Shown here piece after piece: positions 17,756 to 64,000 of a DNA stretch of 64,000 bases. The number at the start of each line of letters is the position of its first letter. The stretch's first letter is position 1. The notes beneath the pieces were generated by a model. That model made no database searches, was not told the origin of the DNA, and saw only the letters and a list, made by a program, of their open reading frames with translations. The translations under genes were made by a program, and so were the position numbers. This stretch comes from a virus (taxonomy: Duplodnaviria > Caudoviricetes). Location: the IMG/VR virus record IMGVR_UViG_2854744553_000002, positions 2,106 to 66,105 of that record. One strand, 5' to 3'.

Positions 17756-17772
17756 ATCGTGCACAATGCACG

Positions 17773-32501: not shown

Positions 32502-33632
32502 GTGAGCATGATAAAAAATGCAATTGATGCACTAGAAACAACTCATGATATATACCGAACCTGTGTAGAGCTACTCAGTGTTTTTATAGAAAAAAATAAA
32601 TCTAGACTAAACGACAATTCAATTGTAAATTTATTAAGAGCAAGAGATAGCTTCAACGAATATTTCGATAGAAGTGAACTCTCAATAGAGGACATTCCGG
32701 TAGCGATGAAGAATCTTCTAATATTTTTAACAAATATTGAAAAAGCAATTTCCGACATAGACAAGAAGGCCAGTACGGCCGTTTCTGGAGGTTTAGATGA
32801 AATTGAAAAGTATGTTGGAATGTCTATTTACAAAACAAGAAGACTAATTGAAGAATTCTCTCCAAAAGACATTCTTGAAAATCAAGAATCAAAATTGCAA
32901 AACTTAAAAAAAGTTACTAATTCAATAGAATCAAAAATTGAAAAACTAAATGAAATTATAAAAAAATCAAGTGACGAAATTCAAGCCCTATCAGCAACAA
33001 CCGACAACCACAAATTAACAATTGAGAAACTAAGCGAATTTAATGAAGTTAGGCTGAATGAACTAGAGGAGATATATAAAAAAAGAATTTCCGATCTAGA
33101 CATTCAACAAACAAAAGTAAATGAGACCGTAGGATTGATTGCAGGTGCTGCGATTATGGGGAAATATGAAAAAAATGCCCTTGCAGAACGAGAAGTCGCC
33201 AACAGCCTTCGACGTTACGCAATCGGCATTATGTCTGGAGTTATTATCCTAATGGCATACTCCTTTCACCAAATAACCACCACTGATTTCGATCTAAAAG
33301 AAAACGTACTACGCACAATCCTTGCCCTGTTCCTATCGATTCCAGCCGCTTATCTGGCGCGAGAATCTGCCAAACATCGCAAACAAGAATATACCCACTT
33401 ACAAACGGCTCTTGATTTAGCTGCATTTTCACCATACATTGAATCGCTACCTGCAGAAACACAGCATAAACTGAAGGAGGAAATGGCATCTCGTATATTC
33501 ACCGCTCGAAACTTTGATTACGTAACCAAAGAAAGCTACCCACTAAATATGCAGGAATTAATAATCGCAATCATGGATAAAATACCTAACAGGGAGCAAC
33601 AAGAAGAAGAGAAAAAGCCTTCCAAGACATGA
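32502..33632 (+). CDS. AT-rich coiled-coil protein with two TM segments (moron)
   Basis: TATAAT at 32468, AGGAG RBS, long heptad region, two hydrophobic helices, opposite to the late operon. Confidence 0.85.
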   Translation: MSMIKNAIDALETTHDIYRTCVELLSVFIEKNKSRLNDNSIVNLLRARDSFNEYFDRSELSIEDIPVAMKNLLIFLTNIEKAISDIDKKASTAVSGGLDEIEKYVGMSIYKTRRLIEEFSPKDILENQESKLQNLKKVTNSIESKIEKLNEIIKKSSDEIQALSATTDNHKLTIEKLSEFNEVRLNELEEIYKKRISDLDIQQTKVNETVGLIAGAAIMGKYEKNALAEREVANSLRRYAIGIMSGVIILMAYSFHQITTTDFDLKENVLRTILALFLSIPAAYLARESAKHRKQEYTHLQTALDLAAFSPYIESLPAETQHKLKEEMASRIFTARNFDYVTKESYPLNMQELIIAIMDKIPNREQQEEEKKPSKT

Positions 33633-39704: not shown

Positions 39705-40147
39705 AACAGTCCCTCAGCTTTCAGGATTTCGTGTGTGCGGCCGACGGCCGCGCGAAACGCAGCCTCCAGGCCGGCCAGCGACAGATCGGCCGGGCGCGGG
39801 CGGCGGCCGTCGAGTACGTCGTGGCAGGCGCTGCAGCCGAACGCGGCAGCGGTGTCTGGCGCCTTCAGGCCCATGCCCTTCCCGTCCGCCAAGAAATTGC
39901 TGTGGCAGAGCACGGTGGTGTCGGGGTCGAAGTTGCAGACGGCCAGGCGCAGCGTGCAGTCCTGACCGCGCGCGGCGCGCCGGATCGGCGTCGAGCGTGG
40001 GCCTTTGGTCTTTAAGCCGGCCTTGCGCTTCGGCGCCGTGCGCTGGTGCGATTGCACGGAGAGCATGCCGGTGGTGGGCATGGGCGAGGTGCGCTTGAAT
40101 GGAGTGCGCGCAAGTGGCTTGCCGGCCTTCATGGGTGAGCGCTTCAT
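39701..40147 (-). CDS. DUF1364 (YbcO-like) putative nuclease
   Basis: ARGQDCTLR...C...TTVLCH...GMGLK...CSACHD. Confidence 0.85.
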   Translation of the reverse strand: MKRSPMKAGKPLARTPFKRTSPMPTTGMLSVQSHQRTAPKRKAGLKTKGPRSTPIRRAARGQDCTLRLAVCNFDPDTTVLCHSNFLADGKGMGLKAPDTAAAFGCSACHDVLDGRRPRPADLSLAGLEAAFRAAVGRTHEILKAEGLL

Positions 40148-40986
40148 TTACCACCGCCAATACTCAATGTGTTACTATTCCGCCAATTAAAACCGAGGAA
40201 ATCATGGTTGAGGAAAAGCTTATTAATTGGCAGCCATTGATTAGAGCGTGCAAATCTTTGAACTGGCCCTGGCGGCTGCTTGCTGGCGTCAGCATCCTTG
40301 GGATAATTGTTGAGCTTGGATACTTCGCGTTCTACGCGATACCTTGGCCGAAATTCGGAGTGGCGGAGTGGGCGTATTGGGTCGCAGCAATAGGAACAAC
40401 AGGTACTTTGATCGGAACATTGTGGATTGCGACGAGTGAAAATAGAAGGCGGCGAAACGATGCATCTGCAGTTGCACGCCTGACTGCTGCCGCTATGTAT
40501 TTTCAACATCTCCACAATCAAGCCAACGCAAACTTTGCACTCCACTGCCTTAAGGTGGCCAATAACCATGAGCTTTTGGCACTCAAGGGCATGGAACACA
40601 TTCTTATTCTCACCAAGAACGCTCACCGCCTCTTGGCAAAAGTTAACCAGTGGACTCCGACTGAGCTCCTTCGATTGGCGCCATTGCACGGCGACTGCGC
40701 CGCACAACTTGCTGCCGCACATGGGCGAATCGGCTCCACAATGTCGTTGCTCAGTGACATCGAAGAAAGCTCGCAGAATCAGGCCTCCTTCTTCGAGCAC
40801 CTGAGTACCAATTGCACGGTGTTGGAAAGTGCCGTTCAGCAACTTCAGAGCACCAGTCGAATATTTGAGACAGTGATAGATAATTCTTAACGGTTTTTGC
40901 GTTCCATCATGACTATCACTGAGGCGCCGACGCGTTGAAATGGCGCGCACGCCACGCCGTTTTTCGCAGGTAAAGTTCATCGTCAT
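40144..40986 (-). other. Stop-free antisense bridge ORF (280 codons)
   Basis: ATGA overlap with the PAPS-reductase stop and ATGA overlap with the DUF1364 start; translation not shown. Confidence 0.5.
40204..40890 (+). CDS. Membrane-anchored accessory protein, backwards in the operon (paralogue A)
   Basis: GAGG RBS; two TM segments ending AAIGTTGTLIGTLWIATSENRRR. Confidence 0.8.
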   Translation: MVEEKLINWQPLIRACKSLNWPWRLLAGVSILGIIVELGYFAFYAIPWPKFGVAEWAYWVAAIGTTGTLIGTLWIATSENRRRRNDASAVARLTAAAMYFQHLHNQANANFALHCLKVANNHELLALKGMEHILILTKNAHRLLAKVNQWTPTELLRLAPLHGDCAAQLAAAHGRIGSTMSLLSDIEESSQNQASFFEHLSTNCTVLESAVQQLQSTSRIFETVIDNS

Positions 40987-41975
40987 TCGCATAATCCGTA
41001 AGCAGAGCTGCACGCCGTTGGTTCGTCCAACGCTGTGAGCAGCGAAAATTGTTTGCCGCCACGGCTGGTCTTTGACCATTCGACCACCGATTCAATGGTC
41101 GACGCCTGCCCCGCGTGCGCCTTGGTTCCCATGTGGAAGAAAGACACTGGCGAACGCGGCCGGCACACCTCGGATACAAGGGCTTCCCATTCGGCGATCC
41201 GGGCGATATGCTCAGGGAACCGGCGCGACACCTCGTGCAACGCCCCTTTACTGCAGTTGATGCAAGGCATGCAGCCGACGCGTGACATTCCTTGCTTGTA
41301 GAGCGGATTCGGCTCGATGCCGGCCAGGCGGTGGGCTTCGAACACGTCGCAAACATTCCAGCGCAAGATTGGCCGGTAAGTGAACAGGCCGCCGCCAACG
41401 ACTTCGAAGTGTTTGACACACGCGCCAGTGCCTTGCAATCGCTCGCGGCGTGACTGGCTTTCATCGATCCGCACGCCCTGCCAGGACCAGATCGCATCGC
41501 ATTCATGATCGATCAATTCCATGGCGAACTCCGTCAATGGCTTGGTCTTGAGGTATTCCGTGCAGAACTGCCGCTTGCGCGATGGGAAGCCGCCGCGCAC
41601 CATGCGAAGGTCCAGGTACGGGTTTCCAGTTGGATGCAGTAGTTCAAGCGCACGCTGGGCCGCCTCTGCTGTCCAGTGGTACATGAACTTGCGCTTTCCA
41701 TACACAGCAGATTCGGGCTCTCCAGCTGCGATACGTGCCAAGTTGGCGCGTTTGGTAGCGAACTCATCAGCGAAGTCAGCTCGCACCACGTTGACATTGA
41801 TGCCTAGGGCCGCGGGCAAGTAGTCCAGCGCATATTCCAGCGTGCTCTCGTGCTCGTTGCCCGTATCGGCCATGACGAAGCGGCACGCGGCCATACCGTA
41901 CTGCTCGAGCGCGAGAATAGCGGTGGCTGTGCTGTCTTTGCCGCCCGAAAGTGAAATCAAGTGGATCAGGCTCAT
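40983..41975 (-). CDS. PAPS reductase family (PP-loop, Fe-S) protein
   Basis: SGGKDS, DTGNE, FCTEYLK, GVRIDES.SR, RVGCMPC motifs. Confidence 0.9.
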   Translation of the reverse strand: MSLIHLISLSGGKDSTATAILALEQYGMAACRFVMADTGNEHESTLEYALDYLPAALGINVNVVRADFADEFATKRANLARIAAGEPESAVYGKRKFMYHWTAEAAQRALELLHPTGNPYLDLRMVRGGFPSRKRQFCTEYLKTKPLTEFAMELIDHECDAIWSWQGVRIDESQSRRERLQGTGACVKHFEVVGGGLFTYRPILRWNVCDVFEAHRLAGIEPNPLYKQGMSRVGCMPCINCSKGALHEVSRRFPEHIARIAEWEALVSEVCRPRSPVSFFHMGTKAHAGQASTIESVVEWSKTSRGGKQFSLLTALDEPTACSSAYGLCE

Positions 41976-42736
41976 GATAAGATTTCCTTTTGACAAGGAA
42001 AACAATGACAAGCACCATCCGGCGCCACCGTGCGGCAATCACGATTTCGCTTTGCGCTGTAATTTTCACAACCCTCGGGGTGCTCAACTTGCCTTACTTG
42101 ACGCCATTTTGGACAACTCTGCAACCCGGTGATAAAGGAACTTGGAGCGGTGCTATCGGGACTGTAGCAACCTTGGTCGGTACCATCTGGCTTGCAACTA
42201 ATGAAAGCCGTAAACGAATCAGGGATGAGCGAGCATTGGCAATCGTTACTTGCATGAGCCTGCTTGTGCGACAGCTGAAAGCCTTGATTACCATCAAAAC
42301 CGTGCTGAATCAGCTCGAACATGAAATACCAGCTGACCTTGGCGTAAGTTTCCTGCAATGTTCTCAAATGTTGTCTCAAACCAAACTTTGGACCATTCAA
42401 GAGATAATTCCGATCATTGTGCTCCCGAACGACGCTGCAGCAGTACTCATACATGCCACCGAGGGAATCCGCCATTGCATTGTTGAGTTGCGCGACCTCT
42501 CGACAGAGTCGCGTGAATGTATGTTGCGGAATTTGCCGGATATCACTAGCCAACTGAAAACTGCCCACGACGCTATAGAGAGTGGTCATGCCGAATGCCA
42601 GAGAGCAGTTTATGGTCGATGATCGGCATTCAAAGATAGTCATTTCTCTCTCCGCACGCCATGCAGCGACCGTATCGACCGATCTAGCGGCGTTGCCGCC
42701 CTCGGACTTGAATGCGGTTGAAATTCTGAAATGCAT
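41972..42736 (-). other. Stop-free antisense bridge ORF (254 codons)
   Basis: GGAGG RBS, ATG 2 nt after the upstream stop, ends in ATGA overlap with the PAPS-reductase start. Confidence 0.5.
42005..42622 (+). CDS. Membrane-anchored accessory protein, backwards in the operon (paralogue B)
   Basis: AAGGA RBS; GAIGTVATLVGTIWLATNESRKR. Confidence 0.8.
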   Translation: MTSTIRRHRAAITISLCAVIFTTLGVLNLPYLTPFWTTLQPGDKGTWSGAIGTVATLVGTIWLATNESRKRIRDERALAIVTCMSLLVRQLKALITIKTVLNQLEHEIPADLGVSFLQCSQMLSQTKLWTIQEIIPIIVLPNDAAAVLIHATEGIRHCIVELRDLSTESRECMLRNLPDITSQLKTAHDAIESGHAECQRAVYGR

Positions 42737-42738
42737 GT

Positions 42739-43164
42739 TCAATCCTCCATCGCGCGCTTGATACCAGCGGCGTCGAGGCCAGCAGCCTTGCAACCCAGGC
42801 GAGTGGCGTAGAAATAGGTCATGTCGCCGCATGCGCGGCCGGCCGTGGCCAGGCCGGCGGCCACCAGGCGCTGCATTGCCTCGTGCTGCTGGCCGCTGCC
42901 GGCAGCAAAGTAATTGCGATAGCCCCAGCGATTCTTCGGCTTGCCCTGTACGGCGCCCAGCATGTGCTGCAGCTTGGCAAAGTCGCCAGGCATGATTGCA
43001 TCGCGGACGGCTGCCAGCGCGCAGGCGGCGCATTTGCCGTGCTGGGACAGTTGCTTGGCGGTGCTGGCCTTGCCGCAGGCGCATAGTTTGCGGATCAGCG
43101 AATAGGCGGGCGCGGCTTGGTTGGCCAGATGGTGGCGCGTAATTTGGGCCGGGTTTGTGATCAT
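42739..43164 (-). CDS. Hypothetical phage protein (frame is open back to GTG 43593)
   Basis: MITNPAQ...CACG...CAAC...LQHMLG...WGYRNYF. Confidence 0.7.
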   Translation of the reverse strand: MITNPAQITRHHLANQAAPAYSLIRKLCACGKASTAKQLSQHGKCAACALAAVRDAIMPGDFAKLQHMLGAVQGKPKNRWGYRNYFAAGSGQQHEAMQRLVAAGLATAGRACGDMTYFYATRLGCKAAGLDAAGIKRAMED

Positions 43165-43197
43165 GCTACGATACCTTTTTAGCAATGGGAGCCATAA

Positions 43198-43563
43198 ATG
43201 ACCTTGAATACCTTGCATTCCTTTGACGATCACATCTTGGATGTGGGTTTCGCACAAGTTTCTGACGGTTGGCGCGGCGAATACCGCATTGAGAGAGGCG
43301 GGGCAACGATTCACCGAGACCAAACTCGAAAAGTCGAATCCACCCCTGGCCTTGCTGAGAGCGCGGCACTTGAAGATGCGGAGGCTTGGGTGGAACGCAG
43401 CCAAGGTACGACGGTGGCTGTAAATGCCGGCGTATATGAAATGGGTTCGCAACAGATCGCGCGCGAATCGCGGAAATGGATTAAAGAAAATTTGCATGAC
43501 ACATCCAACTTCCTTGAAATCTTCCAAGTTGCACAACTCATCGCGTCGCCCGGCCGGAAATAG
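43198..43563 (+). CDS. Small accessory protein, backwards in the operon
   Basis: GGGAG RBS, TG-c-TACGAT extended -10 at 43164-43172, lower GC. Confidence 0.7.
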   Translation: MTLNTLHSFDDHILDVGFAQVSDGWRGEYRIERGGATIHRDQTRKVESTPGLAESAALEDAEAWVERSQGTTVAVNAGVYEMGSQQIARESRKWIKENLHDTSNFLEIFQVAQLIASPGRK

Positions 43564-43589
43564 CAATGCTGGATTGAGTACGCGTGCTT

Positions 43590-45833
43590 TCACGCCACCC
43601 TCGCAATCTCGCGCTCATGCGCGAAGTTGGCGAGGATCAAGGCCTTGGCCATGGGTGGGCAGACTGAATTGCCGCACATGCGCACTTGGGCGCTCTTCGT
43701 CAGTTTCAGGCCCTGTGCTGGGTCGTCGCCGATGATGTAATCGTCGGGGAAGCCCTGGGCCCGGAAAAGCTCGCGCGGCTGCAACATGCGCAGGCCAATA
43801 TCCACGATCTGATAGTCCTGGCCGTGGATCGTCACCAAGCCGAAGCGGTCGCGGCTCGTGACGGTGGCCAGCGGCCCGTCGATCTCCGGCGCCTGGTCGG
43901 TACCGTAATAGCTCAGCAGGAATGCGCGCACCTCGGCATGGTGCTGTCCGCCGGCGCTGACCGTGCCCAGCGGCTCGTCCGTGCCGGCCGCCGTGCTGGT
44001 GCCGCGCAGCTTGACCAGGTTGCTGGTGACGATGCCCAGCGCGTGCGGCGCACCAGCTGGGTTTTCCTTCGGCCCGGCCGTGATCGTCGGCAGCGGCGTG
44101 TTCATGTCGCTACCGGTGGCGCCGGTGCGGAATTTAGTGATGTGCGCCGACACCATCGAGAAATGGCCGCCCTTGACCTGGGCGCAGATGGTGCGCAGCG
44201 GCTCGTCGACTGGCATCACGCGCTGATTGCTCGCGTTGGCGTGCTCCGTCAAGAACGCCGTCACTAGGCTGTGGTGGTCGCATGCGGTGACCGTGCCGAT
44301 AGGATCGGCCAGGTCCGAGCCGACGACGCCCGTGTAATGCTTCGCCAGGAACGCTGTGGCCACGGCCTTGTTGCCGCTGGCCTTCACGGTGCCCAGTGGC
44401 GCCTCGACGTCGTGCGCGCCAGTACCCCAGCGCTTCACGCCGCTGGGCGTTACCTCGCCGTGCGCGGCGTCGACCAGCACAGCCGTCACCAGCGCTGCGT
44501 CGGCCTTCGACGTGGCGGTCGCAGTTGGCTCGTTCAGGCCGCGCGGGCGGCTCTGGCCGGCGCGGCCGCCGACGCCGGTAAGCAGCGCGGACACGAGCGC
44601 CTGGTTGCCGGCAGCGGTGATCGTTGGTACCGGCATATCGGCGCCAGCGCCGGGGTGGCCGGTGGTATTGGTCATGACGAATGGCACAAGCTCAGCTTCG
44701 ACCAGCGCATGCTTCGCGGCCGCGCCCACCACAGTGCCCAGCGGTTTCTCGATATCAAGGGCACGCGGCGCCTGGCCTTCGCGCTCGCCGTAGCCGACTT
44801 GCACCAGCGTGGCCACGCCCAACGCCTTCTCGCCGCGGTGAGCGCCGGTGATGGTGCGGAACGGTTCCCCGATGGATTCGGTGCGGTCGCCGCCCTGGTG
44901 CGTGACCGGGACGATGGTCGGCGCGCAGAAATAGCTGTCGTTGCGCGCCAGCAGCGTGCCGAATGGGCGCGCAGTTGGGCGCGGCTCGCCGGCGCGCGCC
45001 GGGCCGCCGGCGCCGACGATGAACGGATCGGCCGCGTCAACCACGTAGCGCATGATGCCCTTGGCGATCCGGCGCAGCGTCGCTGGCGCCAGCGGCCGGT
45101 CGCGCTCGAAGATCGACGGGCACGGCAAGCTGAAGTCGATGCACTCGGCCGCCGTGCGGTACGGCAGCAGCTTGCCGGCGCGCACGCCGATGCTGTCTGG
45201 CGCGCCATGGGTAGGCTCCGGCCACTTGATGGCGATACCGTCGCGGCGCGCCACCAGGAAGAAGCGTTTGCGGATGGTGGGCGTGTCGTGGTCGCAGCCG
45301 CGCATTTCGCGGTAGTCGACGGTATAGCCGTGCCCGCGCAGCTGGCGAATGAAACTATCGAAGGTCTTGCCCTTCTTCGCCGGATCCGGCTTGGCGCTGC
45401 CGTCCGCCGCAACCAGCAGCGGGCCCCACGTTTTGAATTCCTCGACGTTTTCCAGCATGATCACGCGCGGCTTGCACTTGGCCGCCCAGCGCAGCGTCAC
45501 CCAGGCCAGGCCTCGGATGCGCTTCTCGACGGGCTTGCCGCCCTTGGCCTTGCTGAAATGCTTGCAGTCTGGCGACAGCCAGACCAGACCGACCGGACGA
45601 TTGTTCGTGACCTTGATCGGGTCAACGTCCCACACGCTCTCGCACAGGTGCGTGGTGTGCGGGTGGTTCGCCGCGTGCATGGCCAGCGCTTCGGGATCGT
45701 GGTTGATAGCGATATCGACCGGGCGGCCGAATGCCTGCTCCAGGCCAGTGCTAGTGCCACCACCGCCCGCAAAGTTGTCGATAATCAACTCTTTGCCAAG
45801 GTCGAGGGACAAGGTGAAAGCATCGCGCTTCAT
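43590..45833 (-). CDS. C5-cytosine DNA methyltransferase with an expanded repetitive variable region
   Basis: FAGGGG, SPDC, ENV, RKRFF and GNSV motifs. Confidence 0.93.
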   Translation of the reverse strand: MKRDAFTLSLDLGKELIIDNFAGGGGTSTGLEQAFGRPVDIAINHDPEALAMHAANHPHTTHLCESVWDVDPIKVTNNRPVGLVWLSPDCKHFSKAKGGKPVEKRIRGLAWVTLRWAAKCKPRVIMLENVEEFKTWGPLLVAADGSAKPDPAKKGKTFDSFIRQLRGHGYTVDYREMRGCDHDTPTIRKRFFLVARRDGIAIKWPEPTHGAPDSIGVRAGKLLPYRTAAECIDFSLPCPSIFERDRPLAPATLRRIAKGIMRYVVDAADPFIVGAGGPARAGEPRPTARPFGTLLARNDSYFCAPTIVPVTHQGGDRTESIGEPFRTITGAHRGEKALGVATLVQVGYGEREGQAPRALDIEKPLGTVVGAAAKHALVEAELVPFVMTNTTGHPGAGADMPVPTITAAGNQALVSALLTGVGGRAGQSRPRGLNEPTATATSKADAALVTAVLVDAAHGEVTPSGVKRWGTGAHDVEAPLGTVKASGNKAVATAFLAKHYTGVVGSDLADPIGTVTACDHHSLVTAFLTEHANASNQRVMPVDEPLRTICAQVKGGHFSMVSAHITKFRTGATGSDMNTPLPTITAGPKENPAGAPHALGIVTSNLVKLRGTSTAAGTDEPLGTVSAGGQHHAEVRAFLLSYYGTDQAPEIDGPLATVTSRDRFGLVTIHGQDYQIVDIGLRMLQPRELFRAQGFPDDYIIGDDPAQGLKLTKSAQVRMCGNSVCPPMAKALILANFAHEREIARVA

Positions 45834-46234
45834 GGCCGCACCTCCGCAGCTGGCCGGCGAACGACCACGACAGGCATTGCGCCCACCGTGCCACGAAAGT
45901 GTGGCGTGGCCACCTGGCCAGGCAGTTCAGGCTCAGCGCCCAGCAGCGCCGCGCGCGAGGCGTCTTTCAGCACGTAGCGGATGCCCGCCAGGCGCACATT
46001 ACCCTGGATGAAGCGGGAAAAAATCATGCGCAGGCGGTGTTCCATGCCCGCTTCTTCGATATCGAAGCCAGCGCGTTCGCAGATTTGGTAGAAGGTGCCA
46101 GGCCCGGCCAGCATCGCCTGCAGTAGCGCGTACGAGCGGGAACCTTGCTTCGGCAGCGTGACGCCAGAACGGCGGCGCTTCGTCTTATTTACGCCAAAAG
46201 TCGGGCGCGGGCGATTGTCAGCTTGGCCAGTCAC
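45830..46234 (-). CDS. Hypothetical (possibly winged-helix) protein
   Basis: GTGA and ATGA overlaps at its ends. Confidence 0.6.
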   Translation of the reverse strand: MTGQADNRPRPTFGVNKTKRRRSGVTLPKQGSRSYALLQAMLAGPGTFYQICERAGFDIEEAGMEHRLRMIFSRFIQGNVRLAGIRYVLKDASRAALLGAEPELPGQVATPHFRGTVGAMPVVVVRRPAAEVRP

Positions 46235-50350: not shown

Positions 50351-51268
50351 ATGGAACAATCCCCGCAAAAAAATATTGCCAGCATGGCAGCAGCGAATAT
50401 GGCTGAAGCGAAATCAATTCCTAGCCAACCAATTGCGGTACCGTTGTTTACAACATCTGCATATTTAAGCTTTGCTGAATGGCCAAAAGAGGCGACTGCG
50501 GCTTGCGTACATGCATGCGAAATTCATCACCCGAGCGCCGGCCGCGTTACTGCATATGCAAAAATGTATCGCGCCACTGTAGGTGGCCGAGGATTGTTAA
50601 ATGAAATTTCTGCCTTTATTCTTGGAAGGGCTTTAGGTGCACCAATGGCTGATCACGGCTTTGTTTGCATGATTCCGTTAAGCAGATTATCCTCACCACC
50701 GTCTCACCATAAATGGATACGAGAGTTACTGGCGAAAAATAAAAATGCAGATTTCCCAGCATTTTGCACTAGTAAAATGGATGGAAGTGATGCGGTCATA
50801 GAATACCTTAGAGCAGGGTCCAAAGTATTTTCCGAAGATATTCGAAAATGGAGGGCGCTACCCCTCGCATCCAGATTTGATCAACATATTTCCAACACAG
50901 ATCGACATCTTGGCAATCTTCGGCGCACTGCCAAGCATACATATAAACTATTCGACCACGGACGCATTGTGACGGATGATGGCGATTGGATTGCTAGCGA
51001 CCTTGCCTCACGGACAGGAAAGAAAAATACTGACAGCCTTCTGCAGGAGGCTTGGCCTGATGGTTGTCCGGCTGAAGTTGTTAGTGACATTCTCCTACAT
51101 CTTGGCTATCATGAGACGGCTTTAACTATTGCGCTGCCAGATTTGCGCTGGTGGTGGTCACGCCTTGCTGAGCCATCCGATGCGGCAAGCTTTGAAAAAT
51201 ACTTGATCTATAGAGCCGCGGAGCTCAAGACAATGTATCAGACGGCATACGGCCAGCTACCACTATGA
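50351..51268 (+). CDS. HipA-like (PI3/4-kinase fold) kinase
   Basis: AYAK, NEI, FDQHISNTDRHLGN catalytic loop, LFDHG; low GC. Confidence 0.85.
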   Translation: MEQSPQKNIASMAAANMAEAKSIPSQPIAVPLFTTSAYLSFAEWPKEATAACVHACEIHHPSAGRVTAYAKMYRATVGGRGLLNEISAFILGRALGAPMADHGFVCMIPLSRLSSPPSHHKWIRELLAKNKNADFPAFCTSKMDGSDAVIEYLRAGSKVFSEDIRKWRALPLASRFDQHISNTDRHLGNLRRTAKHTYKLFDHGRIVTDDGDWIASDLASRTGKKNTDSLLQEAWPDGCPAEVVSDILLHLGYHETALTIALPDLRWWWSRLAEPSDAASFEKYLIYRAAELKTMYQTAYGQLPL

Positions 51269-52152
51269 ACTATGATTTGCTACGAGCAGATGCTCAACAT
51301 ATTCAGCCTGCGCCAATTCAAGGCGAGTGGCAAATTATTCAATTTCAACCAGACTTTACCACGGGCGAAATATTCAATATCGGCGTTATTTTCTTCGAAA
51401 AAAGAAAGAAAACACCTCATGTGAAGCTATTGCCCAGTCTCGCTGGATTTCGATCTATTTACGGAGCAAATGGCGCGGACAACTTCAAATTTCTTCTGCG
51501 CCTACTTCACGAGCAGTTAGTAGAGCTTCATGAGCTACGATCGCCAAGCCCGCAAATTATATTTGGTAAAAAAAAATTTACCTCGGGGAATAGCCCACAA
51601 GAAATCATCTCCCATTTATATAAAAATATGGTCACGTTGGCCAGGGCAAAAGATGAAGCCGAGGATGACGCTAACGGTTTCTCTTCACTAAAAACAGAAG
51701 AGTTACGTAGACGCGTATTTAAAGCGGCCCAGAAAAAGATGGGAAATGGTTGGTCATCAATATTTCGGAGTGATCCGATATCTGTTTCCGATAACCGCGG
51801 CATGCGACACTCCCTAGACCTTCCAATCTGGCGTGGCGAGGACCTTTTAAGTGCTCAAATTTATGGGACTATACTATCTGCTCAGTTCAGATCGGATGCC
51901 TACCGGTCAGCTTCCCTTTCGACCGGATATGTTAATTTCAATCAAGCTGCTGAGATTGCAAAATCAGCCAAAGGTGGACTACTGATACTTCGTCCATCAA
52001 AAGAAAACACCGCATTTGATGAACAATTGCGCGCAGAGATCGATAACGATATTGATAAAATTACATGGCCATATATCAAACGCAGGGGAATTAAAATCCA
52101 TGTTGCCGATTCGGTCGACGAGTTGGCCAATGCAGCATTAGCCTTGCTATGA
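51265..52152 (+). CDS. DUF3037-like partner protein
   Basis: IIQFQPDFTTGEIFNIGVIF signature; ATGA overlap with the kinase. Confidence 0.75.
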   Translation: MNYDLLRADAQHIQPAPIQGEWQIIQFQPDFTTGEIFNIGVIFFEKRKKTPHVKLLPSLAGFRSIYGANGADNFKFLLRLLHEQLVELHELRSPSPQIIFGKKKFTSGNSPQEIISHLYKNMVTLARAKDEAEDDANGFSSLKTEELRRRVFKAAQKKMGNGWSSIFRSDPISVSDNRGMRHSLDLPIWRGEDLLSAQIYGTILSAQFRSDAYRSASLSTGYVNFNQAAEIAKSAKGGLLILRPSKENTAFDEQLRAEIDNDIDKITWPYIKRRGIKIHVADSVDELANAALALL

Positions 52153-57315: not shown

Positions 57316-58026
57316 ATGAATACAGCAGTCGCAGCACCACAAATCACCCTGCAAGCCATCCAATCGTCGCAGATCGCCGCCATCGGCCACTGCCCGGCGA
57401 CCGAGACGCTGGCCGTGCAGTTCTTCCGCAAGGGCGCGCCGGCGGACGTGTACCACTACGCCAATGTCACGGCCACCGAGTATGCAGCCTTCGCCGGCGC
57501 CGAGTCCATCGGCAAGCACTTCTACGCGCACATCAAGCCGCATGCCGACAAGCACCCGTACACGAACAAGGGCACGCCGGCCGTCGAGCTGGCGCCGGTC
57601 AAGCTGAGTAAGGAACTGCTGGCCGGCCTGCTGACGGGCCGCGAATACGGCCGCGAAATGGTCAAAGAAGAAGAGCAGCAGGCCAAGGCAGCCGGCCTGA
57701 TCGTGATCTTTGGCGCCAGCGACGACCTGATGGAGTTCCGTGGCTTCGTGGACGACGAGCGCGGCGCGCCGACCATCGCACTGGTCGACGCCAAGGGCCT
57801 GCTGCCGTTCCGCGAGGATATCCAGCAAGACGACGATGCACTCAAGGATTATTTCGCCCGGGCGCCGCAGGTGCGCGCCGTGGATGCGCTGTGGGCCAAG
57901 GAAGACGGCTACAGCTGGACCTACCGCACCGACGTGCCGCACGCCACCTTCGAAATCGTGGAAGACGGCGAGCCTTACTGCCGCGGCATCGTGATCGACG
58001 TGGCCGACCTGGGCGGTGCAGCGTGA
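57316..58026 (+). CDS. KTSC-domain fusion protein
   Basis: SSQIAAIGH...LAVQF...YHYANV...AESIGKHF, followed by a second domain (IFGASDDLMEFRG). Confidence 0.8.
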   Translation: MNTAVAAPQITLQAIQSSQIAAIGHCPATETLAVQFFRKGAPADVYHYANVTATEYAAFAGAESIGKHFYAHIKPHADKHPYTNKGTPAVELAPVKLSKELLAGLLTGREYGREMVKEEEQQAKAAGLIVIFGASDDLMEFRGFVDDERGAPTIALVDAKGLLPFREDIQQDDDALKDYFARAPQVRAVDALWAKEDGYSWTYRTDVPHATFEIVEDGEPYCRGIVIDVADLGGAA

Positions 58027-58271
58027 CCGGCCGCGCCGAACGCCAGGCACGGGCGACCGCAAAGCTCCAGGCTACTTGTGACAAGTTTAACGCCGCGTAC
58101 CAGGTCGGCGCCGCCGTCAGCGTCAAGCTGGATGGTGGCGAGGTCCGCAAGACGGTCACGAATAGCGAAGCGCAGGTCATGGGCGGCCACACTGCGGTCA
58201 TATGGCTGGATGGTATTCGCGGCTGCTATGACCTGGAACGGGTGACGGCCTTAAAGGCGGAAAAAGCATGA
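58023..58271 (+). CDS. Hypothetical protein
   Basis: GTGA/ATGA coupled; FNAAYQVG...GHTAVIWLDG. Confidence 0.65.
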   Translation: MTGRAERQARATAKLQATCDKFNAAYQVGAAVSVKLDGGEVRKTVTNSEAQVMGGHTAVIWLDGIRGCYDLERVTALKAEKA

Positions 58272-58906
58272 GCACCTCTTGCGCTGAGGCGCAATTCCTC
58301 CGCGACGTGGCAGACCACGAAATGACCGTGCTGCGTGACGATGGCGGCAACGGTCGGCATGTTCGCTTCTCGCGCCCCGGCACTGGCTGCATGCACTTCG
58401 ATCTGATTACCTGGCCCGGCTACCTCTGCTACACCGGCGACATGGGCACCTACGTCTTTCAGCGGCTGACCGACATGTTCGAGTTCTTCCGTACTGATCG
58501 GGAGTACAAAAAGCGCAACGGCGCCAAGTTGGCGGTCAACCTCTCGTACTGGGGCGAAAAGCTTCAGGCGACAGATCGCGACGGCTACCGAAAATATTCG
58601 GCCGAGAAGTTCAAGACGAATGTCATGGACTGGATTGAGCAACGGGGGCTGACCGGAAAGCTTGGGCATGGCCTACGTAATGAGCTTCAATCCGAAGTGC
58701 TGGACCATGCAGACGATGGCGCCGACGCAGCCTACCGCGCGGCAATGGACTTTGTCTGGAACGGGAAGCGCGTTTTCCCCGATTTTTACGAGGTAGACAG
58801 CGAGGATTACTCGCACCGCTTCCTCTGGTGCTGCTACGCGCTGGCATGGGGCATCGAGCAATACGACGCGGTCAAGCAGTCGGCGGCCGAGGCGATGCCA
58901 GCATGA
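58268..58906 (+). CDS. Conserved hypothetical phage protein
   Basis: FDLITWPGYLCYTGDMG...YWGEKLQA. Confidence 0.8.
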   Translation: MSTSCAEAQFLRDVADHEMTVLRDDGGNGRHVRFSRPGTGCMHFDLITWPGYLCYTGDMGTYVFQRLTDMFEFFRTDREYKKRNGAKLAVNLSYWGEKLQATDRDGYRKYSAEKFKTNVMDWIEQRGLTGKLGHGLRNELQSEVLDHADDGADAAYRAAMDFVWNGKRVFPDFYEVDSEDYSHRFLWCCYALAWGIEQYDAVKQSAAEAMPA

Positions 58907-58934
58907 TGGCGCGCCGCGCCGCAGGAGCGCCGCC

Positions 58935-59348
58935 ATGACGAAACAGACCTACTTCCTCGTACACGAGGAGGCACGGCGCCGGGCGGTCGAATTTGCCAAG
59001 ACCGCGCCGCCCGGCTGGATGGTGGTGTTTTCCGAGCCGAAGAAGAAGCGCGCCCAGGAAGAAAAGTATCACGCGATGATCGGCGAGATCGCCAAGCAGG
59101 TCGAGCACATCGGGCGCAAGTGGGATGCGGATGACATGAAGCGGCTGCTGGTGGACGAGTTTGCCGACGAAATGCGCCTGGCCGGCACGCCGCTGCACCA
59201 CGACGGGCGCGTGACGCCCAGCTTCGACGGGCGCCGGATCGTTCAGTTGGGCGTCCAGACCAGCGACTTCTACGTGAAGGAAGCCGCGCAGTTCATTGAA
59301 TTTTTGTATGCCTTCGGTGCCGCGCGCGGCGTCGTATTCTCAGAATAA
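58935..59348 (+). CDS. ninB: NinB/Orf-family recombination mediator
   Basis: QEEKYHAMIGEIAKQ...TS.F...FIEFLYAFGAARGVVF. Confidence 0.8.
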   Translation: MTKQTYFLVHEEARRRAVEFAKTAPPGWMVVFSEPKKKRAQEEKYHAMIGEIAKQVEHIGRKWDADDMKRLLVDEFADEMRLAGTPLHHDGRVTPSFDGRRIVQLGVQTSDFYVKEAAQFIEFLYAFGAARGVVFSE

Positions 59349-59357
59349 GGAAGCGCC

Positions 59358-60677
59358 ATGTTTTTCAAGAACCTCCAGATTTACCGCTTGCCCGGCTCTT
59401 GGGCCATGACGGCCGCAGTGCTCGAGCAGGCGCTGGCGCCGCAGCAGTTCACGCCCGCTACCAGCATGGACCTGGTGCGCCAGGGCTGGGCCGCGCCGCG
59501 CGGCGCCGGCGCGCCGCTGGTGCACGCAGTCGGCGACCAGTTCCTGCTGCAGCTGAAAACCGAGAAGAAGCTGCTGCCGTCGACCGTGGTCAACCAGGTC
59601 GCCGCCGCCCGCGCGCTGGAAATGGAAGAGGCCCAGGGCTTCGCGCCCGGCAAGAAGGCAATGAAGGAACTGAAAGAGCGCGTCACCGACGAGCTGCTGC
59701 CGCGCGCGTTCGCCATCCTCAGCACCACGGCCGTGTGGATTGACCCGGTGAACGGCTGGCTGGTGGTAGACGCGGCCAGCCCGGCCAAGGCCGATGAAGT
59801 GATCAAGCTGCTGCTCAAATCCGTAGACAAGCTGCCGCTGGAAAGCCTGCGTGTGCAGCGCTCGCCGGTGGGCGCGATGACGGAATGGCTGCAGGCGGAC
59901 GAATCCCCTACCGGCTTCACGGTCGACCAGGATGCGATCATGCGCGCCACGGGCGAGAGCAAGGCCCAGGTGGCGTACAAGCGCCACACGCTGGAAGCGG
60001 ACGATATCCGCCGCCACATCGCCGCCGGCAAGCAGTGCACCCGCCTGGCCATGACCTGGAGCGACAAGATCAGCTTCGTGCTAGACGAGTCGCTGGCCAT
60101 CAAGTCCATCAAGCCGCTAGAGATCATCAAGGAAAGCGCCACTCGCAACGACGACGAGCGCTTCGACAGCGATTTCGCGCTGATGACGGGCGAGCTGGCG
60201 AAGATGCTAGCCGACCTGGTCGAGGTGCTGGGCGGCGAGGCCGACGTGGAGACGCAAGCAGCGGGCCCGGCTGCTGCCGGCCAGCAGAAGATCGAACGAG
60301 CCGTGAACTTGACTGCCGATCTGTACAAGCTACGCGCCCGTTATCGCGATGTGCTCAACGAGCTGTATGACAGCACCGTGCAGCCGGCCGTTGCCCGCGT
60401 GCGCGAACACATGGCGGAAACCGCCGAGGGCGCAATTAAATCGGCGCTGACGCTGGCCAAGGAGCTTCCTGGCGGCTCACAATCCGCCGACCTGCTCCTA
60501 GTAGCCGCCGTTGAAATCATGGAACCGAGCCCACGGCCGGCAACGGGCGATGCCCCTGTCCGACAGCAGCGGCCGGCGCTGATGCTTAAGGCGATGGAGG
60601 GCTCGGTAGCGGGGCCTATGCAATTGAATGGGACCCGTGAAATAGTAACTAACGAAAAACCTGATCAATCATGCTAA
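59358..60677 (+). CDS. rdgC: RdgC recombination-associated protein with a C-terminal extension
   Basis: MFFKNLQIYRL...EKKLLP...LLPRAF...FDSDFALMTGEL. Confidence 0.92.
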   Translation: MFFKNLQIYRLPGSWAMTAAVLEQALAPQQFTPATSMDLVRQGWAAPRGAGAPLVHAVGDQFLLQLKTEKKLLPSTVVNQVAAARALEMEEAQGFAPGKKAMKELKERVTDELLPRAFAILSTTAVWIDPVNGWLVVDAASPAKADEVIKLLLKSVDKLPLESLRVQRSPVGAMTEWLQADESPTGFTVDQDAIMRATGESKAQVAYKRHTLEADDIRRHIAAGKQCTRLAMTWSDKISFVLDESLAIKSIKPLEIIKESATRNDDERFDSDFALMTGELAKMLADLVEVLGGEADVETQAAGPAAAGQQKIERAVNLTADLYKLRARYRDVLNELYDSTVQPAVARVREHMAETAEGAIKSALTLAKELPGGSQSADLLLVAAVEIMEPSPRPATGDAPVRQQRPALMLKAMEGSVAGPMQLNGTREIVTNEKPDQSC

Positions 60678-61369
60678 GAAAAAATTGCCTTAGCAGCGGT
60701 ATCGAAGTCCTGCTTGGCCAGTCGCGCTACCTCTGGCCAAATATTTGCGCTATTCCACAAGCTACTGGCGCTAAATTTAAGCTCGCCCTCTTCCCAGGCG
60801 CGCAGGAGGTGCTGATCAAGTGTCGCCAAAGCATCGCGAATTCTAAGAACTGTCTGAACCAGCTCTTGGGATCCCATTTCATGCATTGGAATCTGATCAA
60901 TCAAGCGGAGCGCATTCGCAAATTGGGGAATCCCTTGGTAATTGCTAAGTGCAATCACCGCATAAATCCTGTCATCCTGCGGAAGGATGGGCATGGCTTT
61001 CTCCTTCTTCCTGGCAATCAGCTCGATGCCCTTTACTTCATTGCCAATCGCTGTGATCTGCCTACATGCCTCATCAAGGACCGCACCAACGCTATCAATT
61101 TTGCGGCGCAGAGTTCGCTCATCCGCCTTGATCATAAGTTGAGCGGCATGATCACCTTGCAAACGCACCACATAGAGCGCCAGAAAGATAGTAAAAAACG
61201 CAAATATCGCCTGAGCCCAATACGCTATCTCAGCCTTGCCGTATATCGAACTCGTGTCGGTCAAAGCTACCCGCATCGCAGCAAAAAGAAATGTACATCC
61301 AATTGCAAAAAATATGCCGAGAAGAATGTTCGTCCATGTTTGATTTTTCATAGGGCAATATTATCATGA
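60671..61369 (+). other. Stop-free antisense bridge ORF (232 codons)
   Basis: ATG overlaps the rdgC end (ATGCTAA); TGA overlaps the ASCH start (ATGA). Confidence 0.5.
60674..61351 (-). CDS. Membrane-anchored accessory protein, backwards in the operon (distant paralogue C)
   Basis: Two TM segments incl. AYWAQAIFAFFTIFLALYV; TG-a-TAATAT upstream; low GC. Confidence 0.8.
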   Translation of the reverse strand: MKNQTWTNILLGIFFAIGCTFLFAAMRVALTDTSSIYGKAEIAYWAQAIFAFFTIFLALYVVRLQGDHAAQLMIKADERTLRRKIDSVGAVLDEACRQITAIGNEVKGIELIARKKEKAMPILPQDDRIYAVIALSNYQGIPQFANALRLIDQIPMHEMGSQELVQTVLRIRDALATLDQHLLRAWEEGELKFSASSLWNSANIWPEVARLAKQDFDTAAKAIFS

Positions 61370-61755
61370 AAGCACTTTCAATTCGCCAGCCCTGGGCATG
61401 GCTGATCGTCAACGGCTACAAGGACATCGAGAATCGCAGCTGGCCGACCCGGTTTCGCGGAGAGTTCTTGGTTCACGCCAGCAAGGGCATGACACGCGCA
61501 GAATACGACGACGTCGACCTGATGCTCGCGCTTGACGAGCAGCTGCAGCACATCAAGCTGCCGGCCTTCGAGCAACTGGAGCGCGGCGGCATCGTCGGCG
61601 TGGCCGCCATCACCGATTGCGTCACCAGGTCCAAGTCGCCCTGGTTCTTCGGCTCGCATGGCTTTGTGCTGATCGGTGCAAAGCCGGCACCGTTCGTGCC
61701 GCTGAAAGGAATGCTGGGTTTCTTCGATGTGCCAGCTGGCGTGGCGATGCCATGA
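61366..61755 (+). CDS. ASCH domain protein
   Basis: MKALSIRQPWAWLIVNGYKDIENRSW. Confidence 0.92.
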   Translation: MKALSIRQPWAWLIVNGYKDIENRSWPTRFRGEFLVHASKGMTRAEYDDVDLMLALDEQLQHIKLPAFEQLERGGIVGVAAITDCVTRSKSPWFFGSHGFVLIGAKPAPFVPLKGMLGFFDVPAGVAMP

Positions 61756-62390
61756 AGCACCTGCTTGCCTACGAAGTGCGCGAGCCTGGCGAGGGCCATT
61801 GCGTCATTACCTTTGCCACCAACAGCGCTACAGCACGGCGCGAAGGTGGGAATGAGCTGGACTGCTCCTTCAACGAAGTCGAATCCTGCAACCGCCGCCC
61901 GCTGTTCGATCAGTACGCGCCCGGCCCGGTACCGAAGACCGTGCTGATTGAGCATGGCTGGTGGTTCGAGTGCCACCACTGCAGCCGGCGCGTCAACGAC
62001 GACATGCAGCAAGAAGCCGAGGGTGAAGGAGAAGAGCACGAGCACCTGGAAGTTGTCACCGATGGCGATGCCGTCTACTGCAGCCACAGCTGCGTGATGG
62101 GGGAGTTTGTCGAGCGGCGCGCGCAAAAGGCAGCCCAGGCGGCCCTGATCGAGTTCTTTGCGGTCACCTATCCAGACTGCACGATCAGCATCATATGGGT
62201 AAGCCGCGCGCCGCTGCAGGGGCCGGACAGGCTAGGACATGCCCAGGCGATCCTCTACTTCCGGTTTCCAGGGGCGCAGCACGACGCCACCTTTACGTTC
62301 GGCGAAGACCGCATGCGGATCTCGCCTGATGACAGGCCAGCTTTCTACGCTTGGCGCGGCATCAAGATGCCCACCACGGAGGCTGCATGA
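61752..62390 (+). CDS. Hypothetical Cys-rich phage protein
   Basis: GWWFECHHC...YCSHSC; ATGA coupled. Confidence 0.75.
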   Translation: MKHLLAYEVREPGEGHCVITFATNSATARREGGNELDCSFNEVESCNRRPLFDQYAPGPVPKTVLIEHGWWFECHHCSRRVNDDMQQEAEGEGEEHEHLEVVTDGDAVYCSHSCVMGEFVERRAQKAAQAALIEFFAVTYPDCTISIIWVSRAPLQGPDRLGHAQAILYFRFPGAQHDATFTFGEDRMRISPDDRPAFYAWRGIKMPTTEAA

Positions 62391-62518
62391 CCGATGACGA
62401 CGAAGTGCCGAACAACGAGCGCAGCCCTGGCGCCGCGCGCGTGGCGGCGGCCCTGATCCTGATTTACGTGGCGGCTACCCTCGAGGGCGTCCTGGCCGCG
62501 ACAACCTGAAAGGTAAAT

Positions 62519-62845
62519 ATGAAAACACTAATCGAAGCCGTGCAAGTCGAGCGCCGTGAGGATGGCAGCTACTTCCACCCTGCCCTGGCCAACTCGCCGG
62601 ACGATGACAGCGCCGTAGCTTTCAGCGCCTGGTTGGCGGAATGCGGCGTCGAAGTCACCCGCGTCTGGATGGAGATCGATGCCGCACCGCTTTGCGGGCG
62701 CTACTTGGACGACGATACCGACGCACTGAAGGAGTGGCAGCCCACCACGCCAGCCGGCGCAGACTGGTTCCTGCTGGCCATCTTCGACACCGAGGACGAT
62801 GGTCCCGTGGCGTACTTCGTCCGCCCAGCGCCGGCGGCGACGTGA
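62519..62845 (+). CDS. Conserved hypothetical phage protein
   Basis: G.YFHP...WQP..P....WFLLAIFDTEDDGP. Confidence 0.8.
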   Translation: MKTLIEAVQVERREDGSYFHPALANSPDDDSAVAFSAWLAECGVEVTRVWMEIDAAPLCGRYLDDDTDALKEWQPTTPAGADWFLLAIFDTEDDGPVAYFVRPAPAAT

Positions 62846-63084
62846 ATAGCCGCAGCCCGGCGCCGCAGCCGGAAACTCCGGCGGATGCCGCCTACAAGCT
62901 GGACCGCGCCGTGCTGCGCGCGATCCACACCTGCCAGCCCGTGCTGTTCGAGGGCAAGCAGCACCACTTGCGCGCCATGGGCGCCCAAGTGCTGGGCGGC
63001 GGCGTGTCTTCCGTGATCTACCTGATGGGCGACGCGACGCCGCGCCAACCCAACGATATAACCTTTTTGGAGCAAGCTGAATGA
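62842..63084 (+). CDS. Hypothetical protein
   Basis: GTGA/ATGA coupled ORF. Confidence 0.6.
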   Translation: MNSRSPAPQPETPADAAYKLDRAVLRAIHTCQPVLFEGKQHHLRAMGAQVLGGGVSSVIYLMGDATPRQPNDITFLEQAE

Positions 63085-63668
63085 TCAACAACGAGCAACG
63101 CAATCCACCTGTCCGCGCAACGCCCGCCGATTCATTCCAGAGCCGCGTGCAGCCCTGGATGATGGCGTGCTTCGGCGCCGAAATCTCCGCTGACGGCGCC
63201 GAGCGCAATCACCGCTTTCTGGAGGAATCGCTGGAACTGGTACAGGCATGCGGCTGCACGGCCAGCGAGGCGCACCAGCTGGTCGGCTATGTCTTCGGCC
63301 GCCCAGTCGGCGAGCGCCCCCAGGAAGTCGGCGGCGTCATGGTCACGCTGGCCGCCCTGTGCCTAACCCAAGGCATTGACATGCACGCCGCCGGCGAGAC
63401 GGAGCTGGGCAGGATCTGGACGAAGGTCGAGGCAATCCGCGCCAAGCAGGCGGCCAAGCCGAAGCATTCTCCGCTGCCAGCTGCTGCGCCTCAGCCGATC
63501 ATCGGGCGGCTGATGGATCAAATCTCGGCGCTGCCCGTCCTGTGGGGCTTGAATGAGCCGGGCGCGCTGCTGCGCAACAGCGACGTGTTCCGCGTACTGG
63601 TTGCTGCTGGCCGCGAGCAAGCCGCCCTGGAACGCGCTGCTGACGTGGCGACAGGGAGCGCGCCATGA
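63081..63668 (+). CDS. Putative MazG-like all-alpha NTP pyrophosphatase fold protein
   Basis: RFLEESLELVQ...QEVGGV spacing resembles EExxE...ExxD, but the last Asp is Gly. Confidence 0.5.
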   Translation: MINNEQRNPPVRATPADSFQSRVQPWMMACFGAEISADGAERNHRFLEESLELVQACGCTASEAHQLVGYVFGRPVGERPQEVGGVMVTLAALCLTQGIDMHAAGETELGRIWTKVEAIRAKQAAKPKHSPLPAAAPQPIIGRLMDQISALPVLWGLNEPGALLRNSDVFRVLVAAGREQAALERAADVATGSAP

Positions 63669-64000
63669 ACATGGGCGAGCACGACATGGTGGCCAAGCTG
63701 GTCGAAACCATCGAGCGCAATGCGCGCGCGGCGGCCGCCAAGGCAGAGGCAGAGCGCCAGCCTCTGGCCTGGGTGAAGCTGGAGCGCTACGTCGAAATAT
63801 CAGGTGATTCCGTCGATTCTGTCCAGGCCCGCCGCAAGGCCGGCAAGTGGCTCGACGGCAATCAATGCAAAATTGTGGATGGTCGGCTGTGGATCAACTT
63901 GCCGGCTGTAGAAGAATGGGTAGCAAAATGGGAACAAGCAAGTCCAGTCCGCCAGGCGTCGAACTCCGGTCGGGCGTCCAAAGCGAATCGATCCGCATAA
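63665..64000 (+). CDS. xis: Excisionase
   Basis: WVKLERYVEISG...GKWLDG...DGRLWINLPAVEEW; last gene of the early-left operon. Confidence 0.8.
   Translation: MNMGEHDMVAKLVETIERNARAAAAKAEAERQPLAWVKLERYVEISGDSVDSVQARRKAGKWLDGNQCKIVDGRLWINLPAVEEWVAKWEQASPVRQASNSGRASKANRSA

Follow-up and report, generated by a model that had tools for sequence, protein, structure and literature searches.

Introduction

Morons are prophage accessory genes with their own promoter and often with a deviant GC content. Genes of an operon may be coupled translationally via overlapping stop and start codons (ATGA, TAATG), and untranslated operon RNA is subject to Rho-dependent polarity. For open reading frames (ORFs) of Pseudomonas aeruginosa that lie antisense and are translated, purifying selection as proteins was reported in the accessible part of the corresponding paper (PMC8850804). 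In the Pseudomonas phage Fc02, an early-operon gene overlaps an exclusion gene on the opposite strand that is expressed in the lysogen (gene 10/olg1), and the accessible sections of that report state that the products of both gene 10 and olg1 exclude phages (PMC9936078). Here, we describe a locus in a stretch of 64,000 nucleotides (nt) of a tailed-phage genome (IMG/VR record IMGVR_UViG_2854744553_000002, positions 2,106 to 66,105), which is part of a 66-kb provirus record and is called the window throughout. The host of this prophage probably belongs to the Oxalobacteraceae. At this locus a membrane-protein gene, the cassette gene, lies backwards between the rdgC gene and an ASCH-domain gene of an operon, and its antisense strand forms an uninterrupted ORF of 232 codons (60671-61369, + strand), which we call the bridge. 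We consider it likely that this frame is selected only for being translated, and that it serves to maintain coupling or to avert polarity over the reversed insert.

Results

The bridge and its flanking genes

The cassette gene (60674-61351, minus strand) encodes a protein of 225 amino acids (aa) with two N-terminal membrane helices and a helical domain. It is preceded in operon direction by rdgC (59358-60677, + strand; Pfam RdgC, residues 1-294 of 439, E = 1.8e-110) and followed by the ASCH-domain gene (61366-61755, + strand; Pfam ASCH, E = 1.9e-6). The bridge runs in operon direction and is codon-aligned antisense to the cassette gene. The first-pass annotation of this DNA had placed its start inside the last rdgC codons and its stop on the ASCH start, and this is what we see: the bridge ATG lies 4 nt ahead of the rdgC TAA (ATGCTAA, 60671-60677) and the bridge TGA overlaps the ASCH ATG (ATGA, 61366-61369). 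The coordinates that had been given for rdgC, the minus-strand gene, the antisense frame and ASCH were all correct on re-inspection. Thus, a stop codon overlaps or abuts the next start codon at both the rdgC/bridge and the bridge/ASCH junction, and these stop-start overlaps at both ends suggest a hand-over of ribosomes.

The insert is very compact. The rdgC TAA (60675-60677) overlaps the stop codon of the cassette gene on the opposite strand, so that there is no room for a cassette terminator, and a scan of 60400-61600 yielded no terminator-like site. At the other side the gap between the cassette ATG and the ASCH ATG is only 14 nt. The GC content of the insert amounts to 47-50% compared with 62-70% in the flanks (cassette gene about 48% vs. 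about 64%). No Rfam family was matched in 58000-64000. The local operon starts with a NinB-like gene (58935-59348, + strand), which is followed by rdgC, ASCH and further genes.

The cassette gene and its protein family

The minus-strand ORF 60674-61351 is a real gene and its product, as judged from sequence comparison, is a member of an uncharacterised family of Burkholderiales prophages. An exhaustive phmmer search with the cassette protein returned 48 cluster representatives at E ≤ 1e-3, 12 of them at E ≤ 1e-10, with a best match at E = 1.7e-61, and all 48 are 170-244 aa long; a word-index protein search had given 2 proteins. Common to the family are two N-terminal hydrophobic helices and the motif W-[VA]-Q-A-[IV]-G in the second membrane helix, and W45 and Q65 are invariant in 30 family sequences. 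An AlphaFold2 model of the cassette protein built with 30 sequences is all helical, with a predicted local distance difference test score (pLDDT) of 91.8. When we compared the cassette gene with its closest relative (locus L032), nucleotide differences at codon positions 1, 2 and 3 were 0.38, 0.31 and 0.71, and the minus frame is the frame under protein-level selection. Metagenome contigs also carry the filled allele, i.e. the junction with the cassette; among the differences listed for them four fall inside the gene, all of which are synonymous in the minus frame, while three alter a residue of the + frame and none creates a stop.

Searches of Pfam, PHROG and PADLOC gave no family for the cassette protein. 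A Foldseek comparison of its model with PDB and BFVD retrieved generic helical bundles, none at E ≤ 0.001, and tblastn against 50,697 phage records gave no match. A scan of viral contigs with the single protein found none, and the family alignment then gave 22 loci. The ESM Atlas returned unnamed clusters and leads scoring under 0.9 (DUF4760; retron Ec48 effector). We rejected the SLATT/retron Ec48 type of two-membrane-helix defence effector: SLATT_3 was matched in 3 of 30 members with a best E of 0.065, PADLOC had no match, and the ESM Atlas lead scored only 0.78. The cassette protein is possibly an exclusion or defence protein expressed in the lysogen, which is a guess on our side. Outside the window, a protein of a 7.3-kb contig (P0001) is a near-identical copy of the cassette protein that differs at both ends. 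These end differences fit single-base length changes in T runs, and P0001 could be a sequencing error or a decaying copy.

Depletion of antisense stop codons

The cassette gene and the + frame share codon boundaries, and of all antisense frames the codon-aligned one alone can lose its stops through purely synonymous changes. The + frame is open because the cassette gene has no TTA, CTA or TCA codon. There is none among its 24 leucine and 10 serine codons at a GC content of third codon positions (GC3) of 0.51, although its own use of A-ending codons predicts 7.2 such codons; the probability of finding zero, P(0), is 2.3e-4.

We collected 22 loci from viral contigs (by the family alignment), 62 loci around rdgC relatives and 60 loci from species-representative genomes (Janthinobacterium, Massilia, Collimonas, Duganella, Burkholderia, Paraburkholderia, Pandoraea, Polaromonas and other genera). 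In these 144 loci and the window, a hidden Markov model (HMM) of the family detected 118 ORFs, and 113 family genes were kept once identical DNA had been removed together with ORFs that contained N or lacked a start candidate. Zero antisense stops were found in 52 of the 113 genes, 1-4 stops in 28 and 5-16 stops in 33. The sum of P(0) over the 113 genes is 0.20, so that the stop-free genes are in an approximately 260-fold excess. In these 52 genes CTA accounts for 0 of 843 CTN codons, TCA for 0 of 370 TCN and TTA for 0 of 309 TTR, while 17-28% of the codons of the other four-fold families end in A and the A/G pairs use A at 48-57%. In contrast, the 33 paralogs with at least five antisense stops use CTA (19.5%), TCA (28.8%) and TTA (37.7%) normally, and some of them come from the same phage group (e.g. 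L032 4499-5152). The remaining four alternative frames of the 52 stop-free genes contain 7-11 stops each. In a FastTree tree of the 113 genes the stop-free state changes 31 times compared with 37.4 ± 2.7 in 300 shuffles, 7 of which had 31 changes or fewer; the stop-free state is scattered across the family tree and not confined to one clade. Among the genes with a single stop, 9 of 12 carry it no more than 162 nt from the 5' end of the gene, i.e. at the far end of the bridge. This position fits tolerance of a short untranslated tail, or mis-set gene starts.

In high-GC parts of the window, codon-aligned antisense ORFs of full length occur frequently, for instance 28360-29748 over 28405-29769, and the bridge might be ascribed to chance or to the general codon bias of a GC-rich host. 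We rate this explanation as practically negligible. The insert has a GC content of only 48% with GC3 at 0.51, and 44 TTA, CTA or TCA codons stand among the 226 leucine and serine codons of seven other window genes with similar GC. Moreover, P(0) ranges from 4e-8 to 2e-4 for the four cases in the window, and 52 stop-free genes out of 113 stand against 0.20 expected. The conclusion of the first-pass annotation that the pattern is not due to chance is borne out by this excess and by the ORF ends on stop-start overlaps.

TTA, CTA and TCA are rare codons in GC-rich Betaproteobacteria, and selection on the expression of the cassette gene itself might have removed them, leaving the open frame as a by-product. 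This rarity speaks for such an explanation, which we nevertheless regard as a remote one. Other A-ending codons are used normally in the same genes and paralogs of the same phage group use the three codons at 20-38%. Avoidance of rare codons also leaves unexplained why the two ends of the ORF lie on stop-start overlaps and why 9 of 12 single stops cluster near the 5' end of the gene.

Bridges elsewhere in the window and beyond

The first-pass annotation had pointed to the same architecture on the other strand about 17 kb away, and three further cases, at a distance of about 17-20 kb, proved to be real. A bridge ORF of 280 codons (40144-40986, minus strand) lies over a reversed family gene (40204-40890, + strand; P(0) 1.1e-7, family HMM E = 2e-5). 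Its ATG overlaps the TGA of a PAPS-reductase-like gene and its TGA overlaps the ATG of an HNH gene (40147), both flanking genes being named from PHROG matches. A second one of 256 codons (41972-42742, minus strand) covers the reversed family gene 42005-42622 (+ strand; P(0) 4.2e-8, family HMM E = 1e-4). This bridge begins with a TTG that overlaps the upstream TGA, with an in-frame ATG two codons later, and its TGA overlaps the ATG of the PAPS-reductase-like gene (41975). The genes 42005-42622 and 40204-40890 are paralogs (27% identity, E = 6e-16). The third bridge frame (42739-43593, minus strand) lies over a reversed gene that is not a family member (43198-43563, + strand; P(0) 9.3e-5); it starts with a GTG overlapping the TGA of a DNA methyltransferase gene, and its open frame is also the frame of the next gene's ATG, so that bridge and downstream gene are fused in one ORF. 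All four antisense ORFs of the window run with the surrounding operon, as had been proposed. The cassette at rdgC had been called independent of the others. This holds only in a relative sense, since the family HMM distantly links the cassette gene with two of the other three window genes. BLASTP found no link from the cassette gene to the two family genes at 40-42.6 kb, and the family HMM alone connects them.

We also carried out a scan that is blind to the family and looks for low-scoring ORFs (100 codons or more) with stop-start overlaps to a well-scoring gene on either side. It yielded 27 bridge-like ORFs, 18 of them over family genes and 9 over other sequence. In at least 4 of these 9 (L086, L100, L004, L015) the ORF is occupied to 88-96% by an unrelated reversed gene. 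The antisense bridge pattern is therefore general and extends beyond the membrane-protein family. The non-family reversed genes with bridge NTGA overlaps on both sides are found at reverse-complement positions 4765-5469 of L086 and 3901-4281 of L100, and likewise at 6459-6926 of L004 and 2897-3364 of L015 (+ gene 5141-5554). The reversed gene of L004 may be related to window gene 43198-43563.

Other reversed low-GC genes of the window are loosely spaced. Those at 17759-18478, 18796-19191 and 32502-33632 contain 13, 5 and 33 antisense stops, respectively. These genes (17759-19191 and 32502-33632) lie inside the minus-strand late region with intergenic gaps of about 250-320 nt. They look like classical morons and form an internal contrast to the tight cassettes. 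Two adjacent + strand genes (305 and 295 aa; 50351-52152) have a GC content of 43-47% and constitute the largest low-GC island in the profiled 36-64 kb half of the window.

Boundaries and product of the bridge

For the 52 stop-free genes we located the ends of the bridge, counting in-frame ATG, GTG and TTG as start codons. The bridge start overlaps the stop of the upstream gene at offset -1 (NTGA) in 33 of 52 cases (23 of 31 for viral contigs plus window), and at the other end the stop of the bridge and the start of the downstream gene overlap with the same offset (-1, ATGA) in 26 of 52 (22 of 31). Overlaps at both ends were observed in 19 of 52 (17 of 31), and 40 of 52 have an overlap at either end. 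In locus L022 two reversed family genes in tandem (3251-3925 and 3950-4582) are covered by one open frame of 558 codons (3197-4792, minus strand of the locus; 531 codons when counted from the first start codon), whose end lies 5 nt past the start of the following operon gene.

When the bridge protein was aligned with its counterpart in L032, we obtained 23.7% identity. A simulation without constraint, in which synonymous codons were resampled independently, gave 24.8 ± 2.3%. In 17 of 17 pairs the identity of the bridge frame was below that of the gene frame, and it reached roughly half of the latter in the 16 diverged pairs (22-37% vs. 45-63%). The amino-acid sequence of the bridge is thus not conserved, and the absence of stops is the only visible constraint in this frame.

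The same comparison bears on the possibility of dual coding, i.e. that the + ORF encodes a functional protein of its own and forms an antisense overlapping gene pair with the cassette gene. In favour of it, the ORF is of considerable length, its start and stop contexts are plausible, and counterparts exist in relatives. There are precedents in the translated antisense ORFs of Pseudomonas, as described in the accessible text of that study (PMC8850804), and in the antisense ORF pair with exclusion activity of phage Fc02, according to the accessible sections of the source (PMC9936078). Dual coding appears very improbable to us here. The identity of the bridge proteins falls inside the no-constraint simulation, so that purifying selection is not seen, and bridge-frame identity is the lower one in every pair. 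Furthermore, the bridge ORF has no match in Pfam or PHROG, and the bridges over unrelated reversed genes share the same architecture, which is hard to square with a common protein function.

Filled and empty alleles in relatives

The closest relative of the cassette gene that we found encodes 227 aa, is 47% identical and lies in locus L032 directly ahead of an ASCH gene (78% identical). The gene upstream differs from rdgC and encodes 149 aa. The first-pass annotation had named stops in the + frame of filled relatives, without other decay, as the observation that would count against its proposal; this relative next to ASCH has zero antisense stops, with third codon positions that are 71% different. 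Its antisense ORF of 238 codons begins in an ATGA shared with the upstream stop and ends in another that it shares with the ASCH start. L032 thus keeps the open frame despite saturated synonymous sites. In locus L044, where the ASCH gene is 90% identical, the junction is empty and the upstream TAA overlaps the ASCH ATG directly (TAATG). The counterpart of the 149-aa gene of L032 is split over two frames there (L044:4791-5413), the last of which still ends on the ASCH start; the split is a frameshift or a sequencing error. Eleven family cassettes lie directly after rdgC, and four of them are stop-free (window, L025, L043, L062). Flanking genes in operon direction are present for bridged and unbridged cassettes alike, and this context fails to separate the two classes.

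A second insertion site is the methyltransferase junction, which is empty in the window: at 45826-45840 (minus strand) the TGA of a gene for a 145-aa protein overlaps the methyltransferase ATG (ATGA). The site is filled in seven relatives (L002, L004, L005, L007, L014, L021, L023), and all seven cassettes have zero antisense stops. In the filled sites the bridge starts at the original methyltransferase ATG behind the original GGAGG, and the insert brings a ribosome-binding-like AAGGA and a new methyltransferase ATG. Each end of the insert carries a copy of the first 5-12 nt of the gene with its ATG.

Because of this duplication at the left end of the insert, the start of the bridge ORF comes free, and the open frame might be a mere relic of the construction or movement of the cassette (in-frame insertion, start duplication) that is not maintained by selection. 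We consider such a relic highly unlikely. Between the compared cassettes (45-63% identical) 54-71% of the synonymous positions differ, and at this divergence an unselected frame of more than 200 codons would hold about eight stops, as observed in the unbridged paralogs. The scattering of the stop-free state over the family tree also speaks against a relic.

Judged from its relatives, the rdgC gene of the window has lost its native end. The relatives stop a few codons past a conserved ...NG.RE.L, while the window frame is about 9 codons longer and runs to the TAA that overlaps the cassette stop. The 3' part of the window rdgC (60380-60677) lacks about 50 residues of a C-terminal segment that is conserved in 7 of 8 relatives (...DPLY..AVE.VR..QRAS.SLVQR...GYNRA.RL...), and which may resemble the winged-helix gamma domain of FtsK. 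Wastewater contigs that match ASCH lose their similarity to the window at 61365-61366, i.e. at the ASCH ATG or one base ahead of it, and continue upstream with unrelated sequence. It seems that mosaic joints of these phages are placed on start codons.

The junction element and a candidate promoter

The cassette ATG and the ASCH start are separated by a junction element that carries signals on both strands (61352-61369). In + orientation, a weak AGGG of Shine-Dalgarno type is followed by a spacer and the ASCH ATG(A). The minus strand has TGATAATAT (read from 61366 to 61358), which is extended -10-like and ends 6 nt ahead of the cassette ATG. The spacing of TGATAATAT suggests a leaderless transcript of the cassette gene. 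Many loci with differing downstream genes show the arrangement A(A)GGA-spacer-CATGA on the operon strand beside the cassette start, and the opposite strand of such junctions reads CATGnTAnnAT, again extended -10-like, in which the CATG contains the downstream start codon. TGnTAnnnT was present within 60 nt upstream of 52 of the 113 family genes, and in 20 of these 52 its distance is always 15 nt, with the hexamer 6 nt ahead of the ATG, the same spacing as in the window. From its position we regard the extended -10-like motif as a candidate promoter of the cassette. A scan for two-hexamer promoters on the minus strand found none.

Discussion

Chance, host codon bias, a second functional protein and an insertion relic each fit our data poorly. 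If the bridge is selected for being translated, the arrangement could work as follows. The cassette would be a compact accessory unit, made up of a membrane-protein gene and a promoter/ribosome-binding junction of about 15 nt, that lies in reverse orientation where a stop and a start meet in a tightly coupled prophage operon. Ribosomes ending rdgC would re-initiate at the overlapping ATG, read 232 meaningless codons, terminate on the ASCH ATG and pass to ASCH. The act of translation, not the polypeptide, would be selected. The selective benefit, which we infer from the sequence pattern, would be translational coupling and/or a cover of the operon RNA against Rho-dependent termination, decay and pairing with the cassette transcript; such a cover would leave a signature identical to that of ribosome hand-over, and the two are not separable here. 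The cassette gene itself is probably expressed in the lysogen from the extended -10-like promoter that shares its CATG with the downstream start codon.

Several observations weigh against this interpretation. First of all, translation of 60671-61369 is itself something that we infer from comparative evidence. The bridge ATG at 60671 has no Shine-Dalgarno sequence, so that initiation would rest wholly on re-initiation after rdgC. At least one antisense stop is present in 61 of the 113 family genes, and the remaining 7 of the 11 rdgC-adjacent cassettes (L026, L027, L032, L040, L046, L056, L059) carry 3-10 antisense stops with an intact membrane gene. The cassette can thus persist without bridging. 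A tight promoter/start junction is no predictor of bridging either: of the 20 genes with a leaderless-type junction 10 are stop-free and 10 are not. The family members are related, so that the counts are not fully independent. Finally, the flanking genes were called by a self-trained codon score rather than by a gene finder. No overlap was found at the bridge start in 14 of 52 cases and at the stop in 22 of 52, counts that include loci ending near the gene and flanking genes below the codon-score threshold.

For the temperate phages of Burkholderiales in general, we lean towards the following view. Minimal reversed cassettes would be widespread at coupled stop-start junctions, and their antisense strand would have evolved into a translated bridge (100-380 codons, in one locus up to about 560). 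This bridge would relay ribosomes or shield RNA, and its being read would be all that is selected. The cassette promoter and the downstream ribosome-binding site and start codon would occupy the two strands of one junction of about 15-18 nt. If this is true, it would constitute a new rule on the tolerance of accessory genes by phage operons and a clear example from nature in which translation is selected while its product is not. Provided that the bridge is translated, a backwards accessory gene can be accepted in the middle of an operon without breaking expression of the genes behind it, and long ORFs can be retained simply because their translation is selected. Such a result would have implications for the tolerance of morons, for the meaning of many long antisense ORFs in bacterial genomes and for their treatment by gene finders. 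The proposal is directly testable, since the bridge can be closed by changes that are silent for the cassette gene.

Comparison with known systems

The elementary mechanisms (stop-start coupling, Rho polarity, leaderless lysogenic transcripts) are known, and it is their combination that is new; a full-text literature search (main texts of open-access papers and bioRxiv) retrieved no description of such bridges. With morons the cassette shares a deviant GC content (0.47-0.50 vs. 0.62-0.70 in the flanks), presence or absence among related phages (the ASCH junction is empty in L044 and filled in the window and L032), a candidate promoter of its own and a product that is probably a lysogen-expressed membrane protein. 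It differs from them in that no terminator-like site was found and intergenic DNA is nearly absent (a gap of 14 nt and, at the opposite end, overlapping stops), and in that it is reversed inside a coupled operon with the antisense frame kept open.

The translated ORFs of P. aeruginosa are similar in being long and antisense within a real gene, as far as the accessible part of the paper describes them (PMC8850804). Compared with that description, no constraint beyond the absence of stops is seen in the bridge protein, and its ORF is delimited by stop-start overlaps with the neighbouring operon genes. Phage Fc02 is likewise a temperate phage in which a lysogen-expressed gene (probable in our case) is antisense to an ORF of the lytic operon. 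According to the accessible sections on Fc02, both strands encode functional proteins there, whereas only one strand encodes a conserved protein here. There is also no sequence relation, as indicated by the tblastn search of 50,697 phage records. As in classical translational coupling, the same stop-start overlaps occur at both ends of the bridge and as direct overlaps in the empty alleles. However, the known cases join two real genes, while here the coupling would be carried across a reversed gene by an ORF of 100-380 codons whose product is not conserved.

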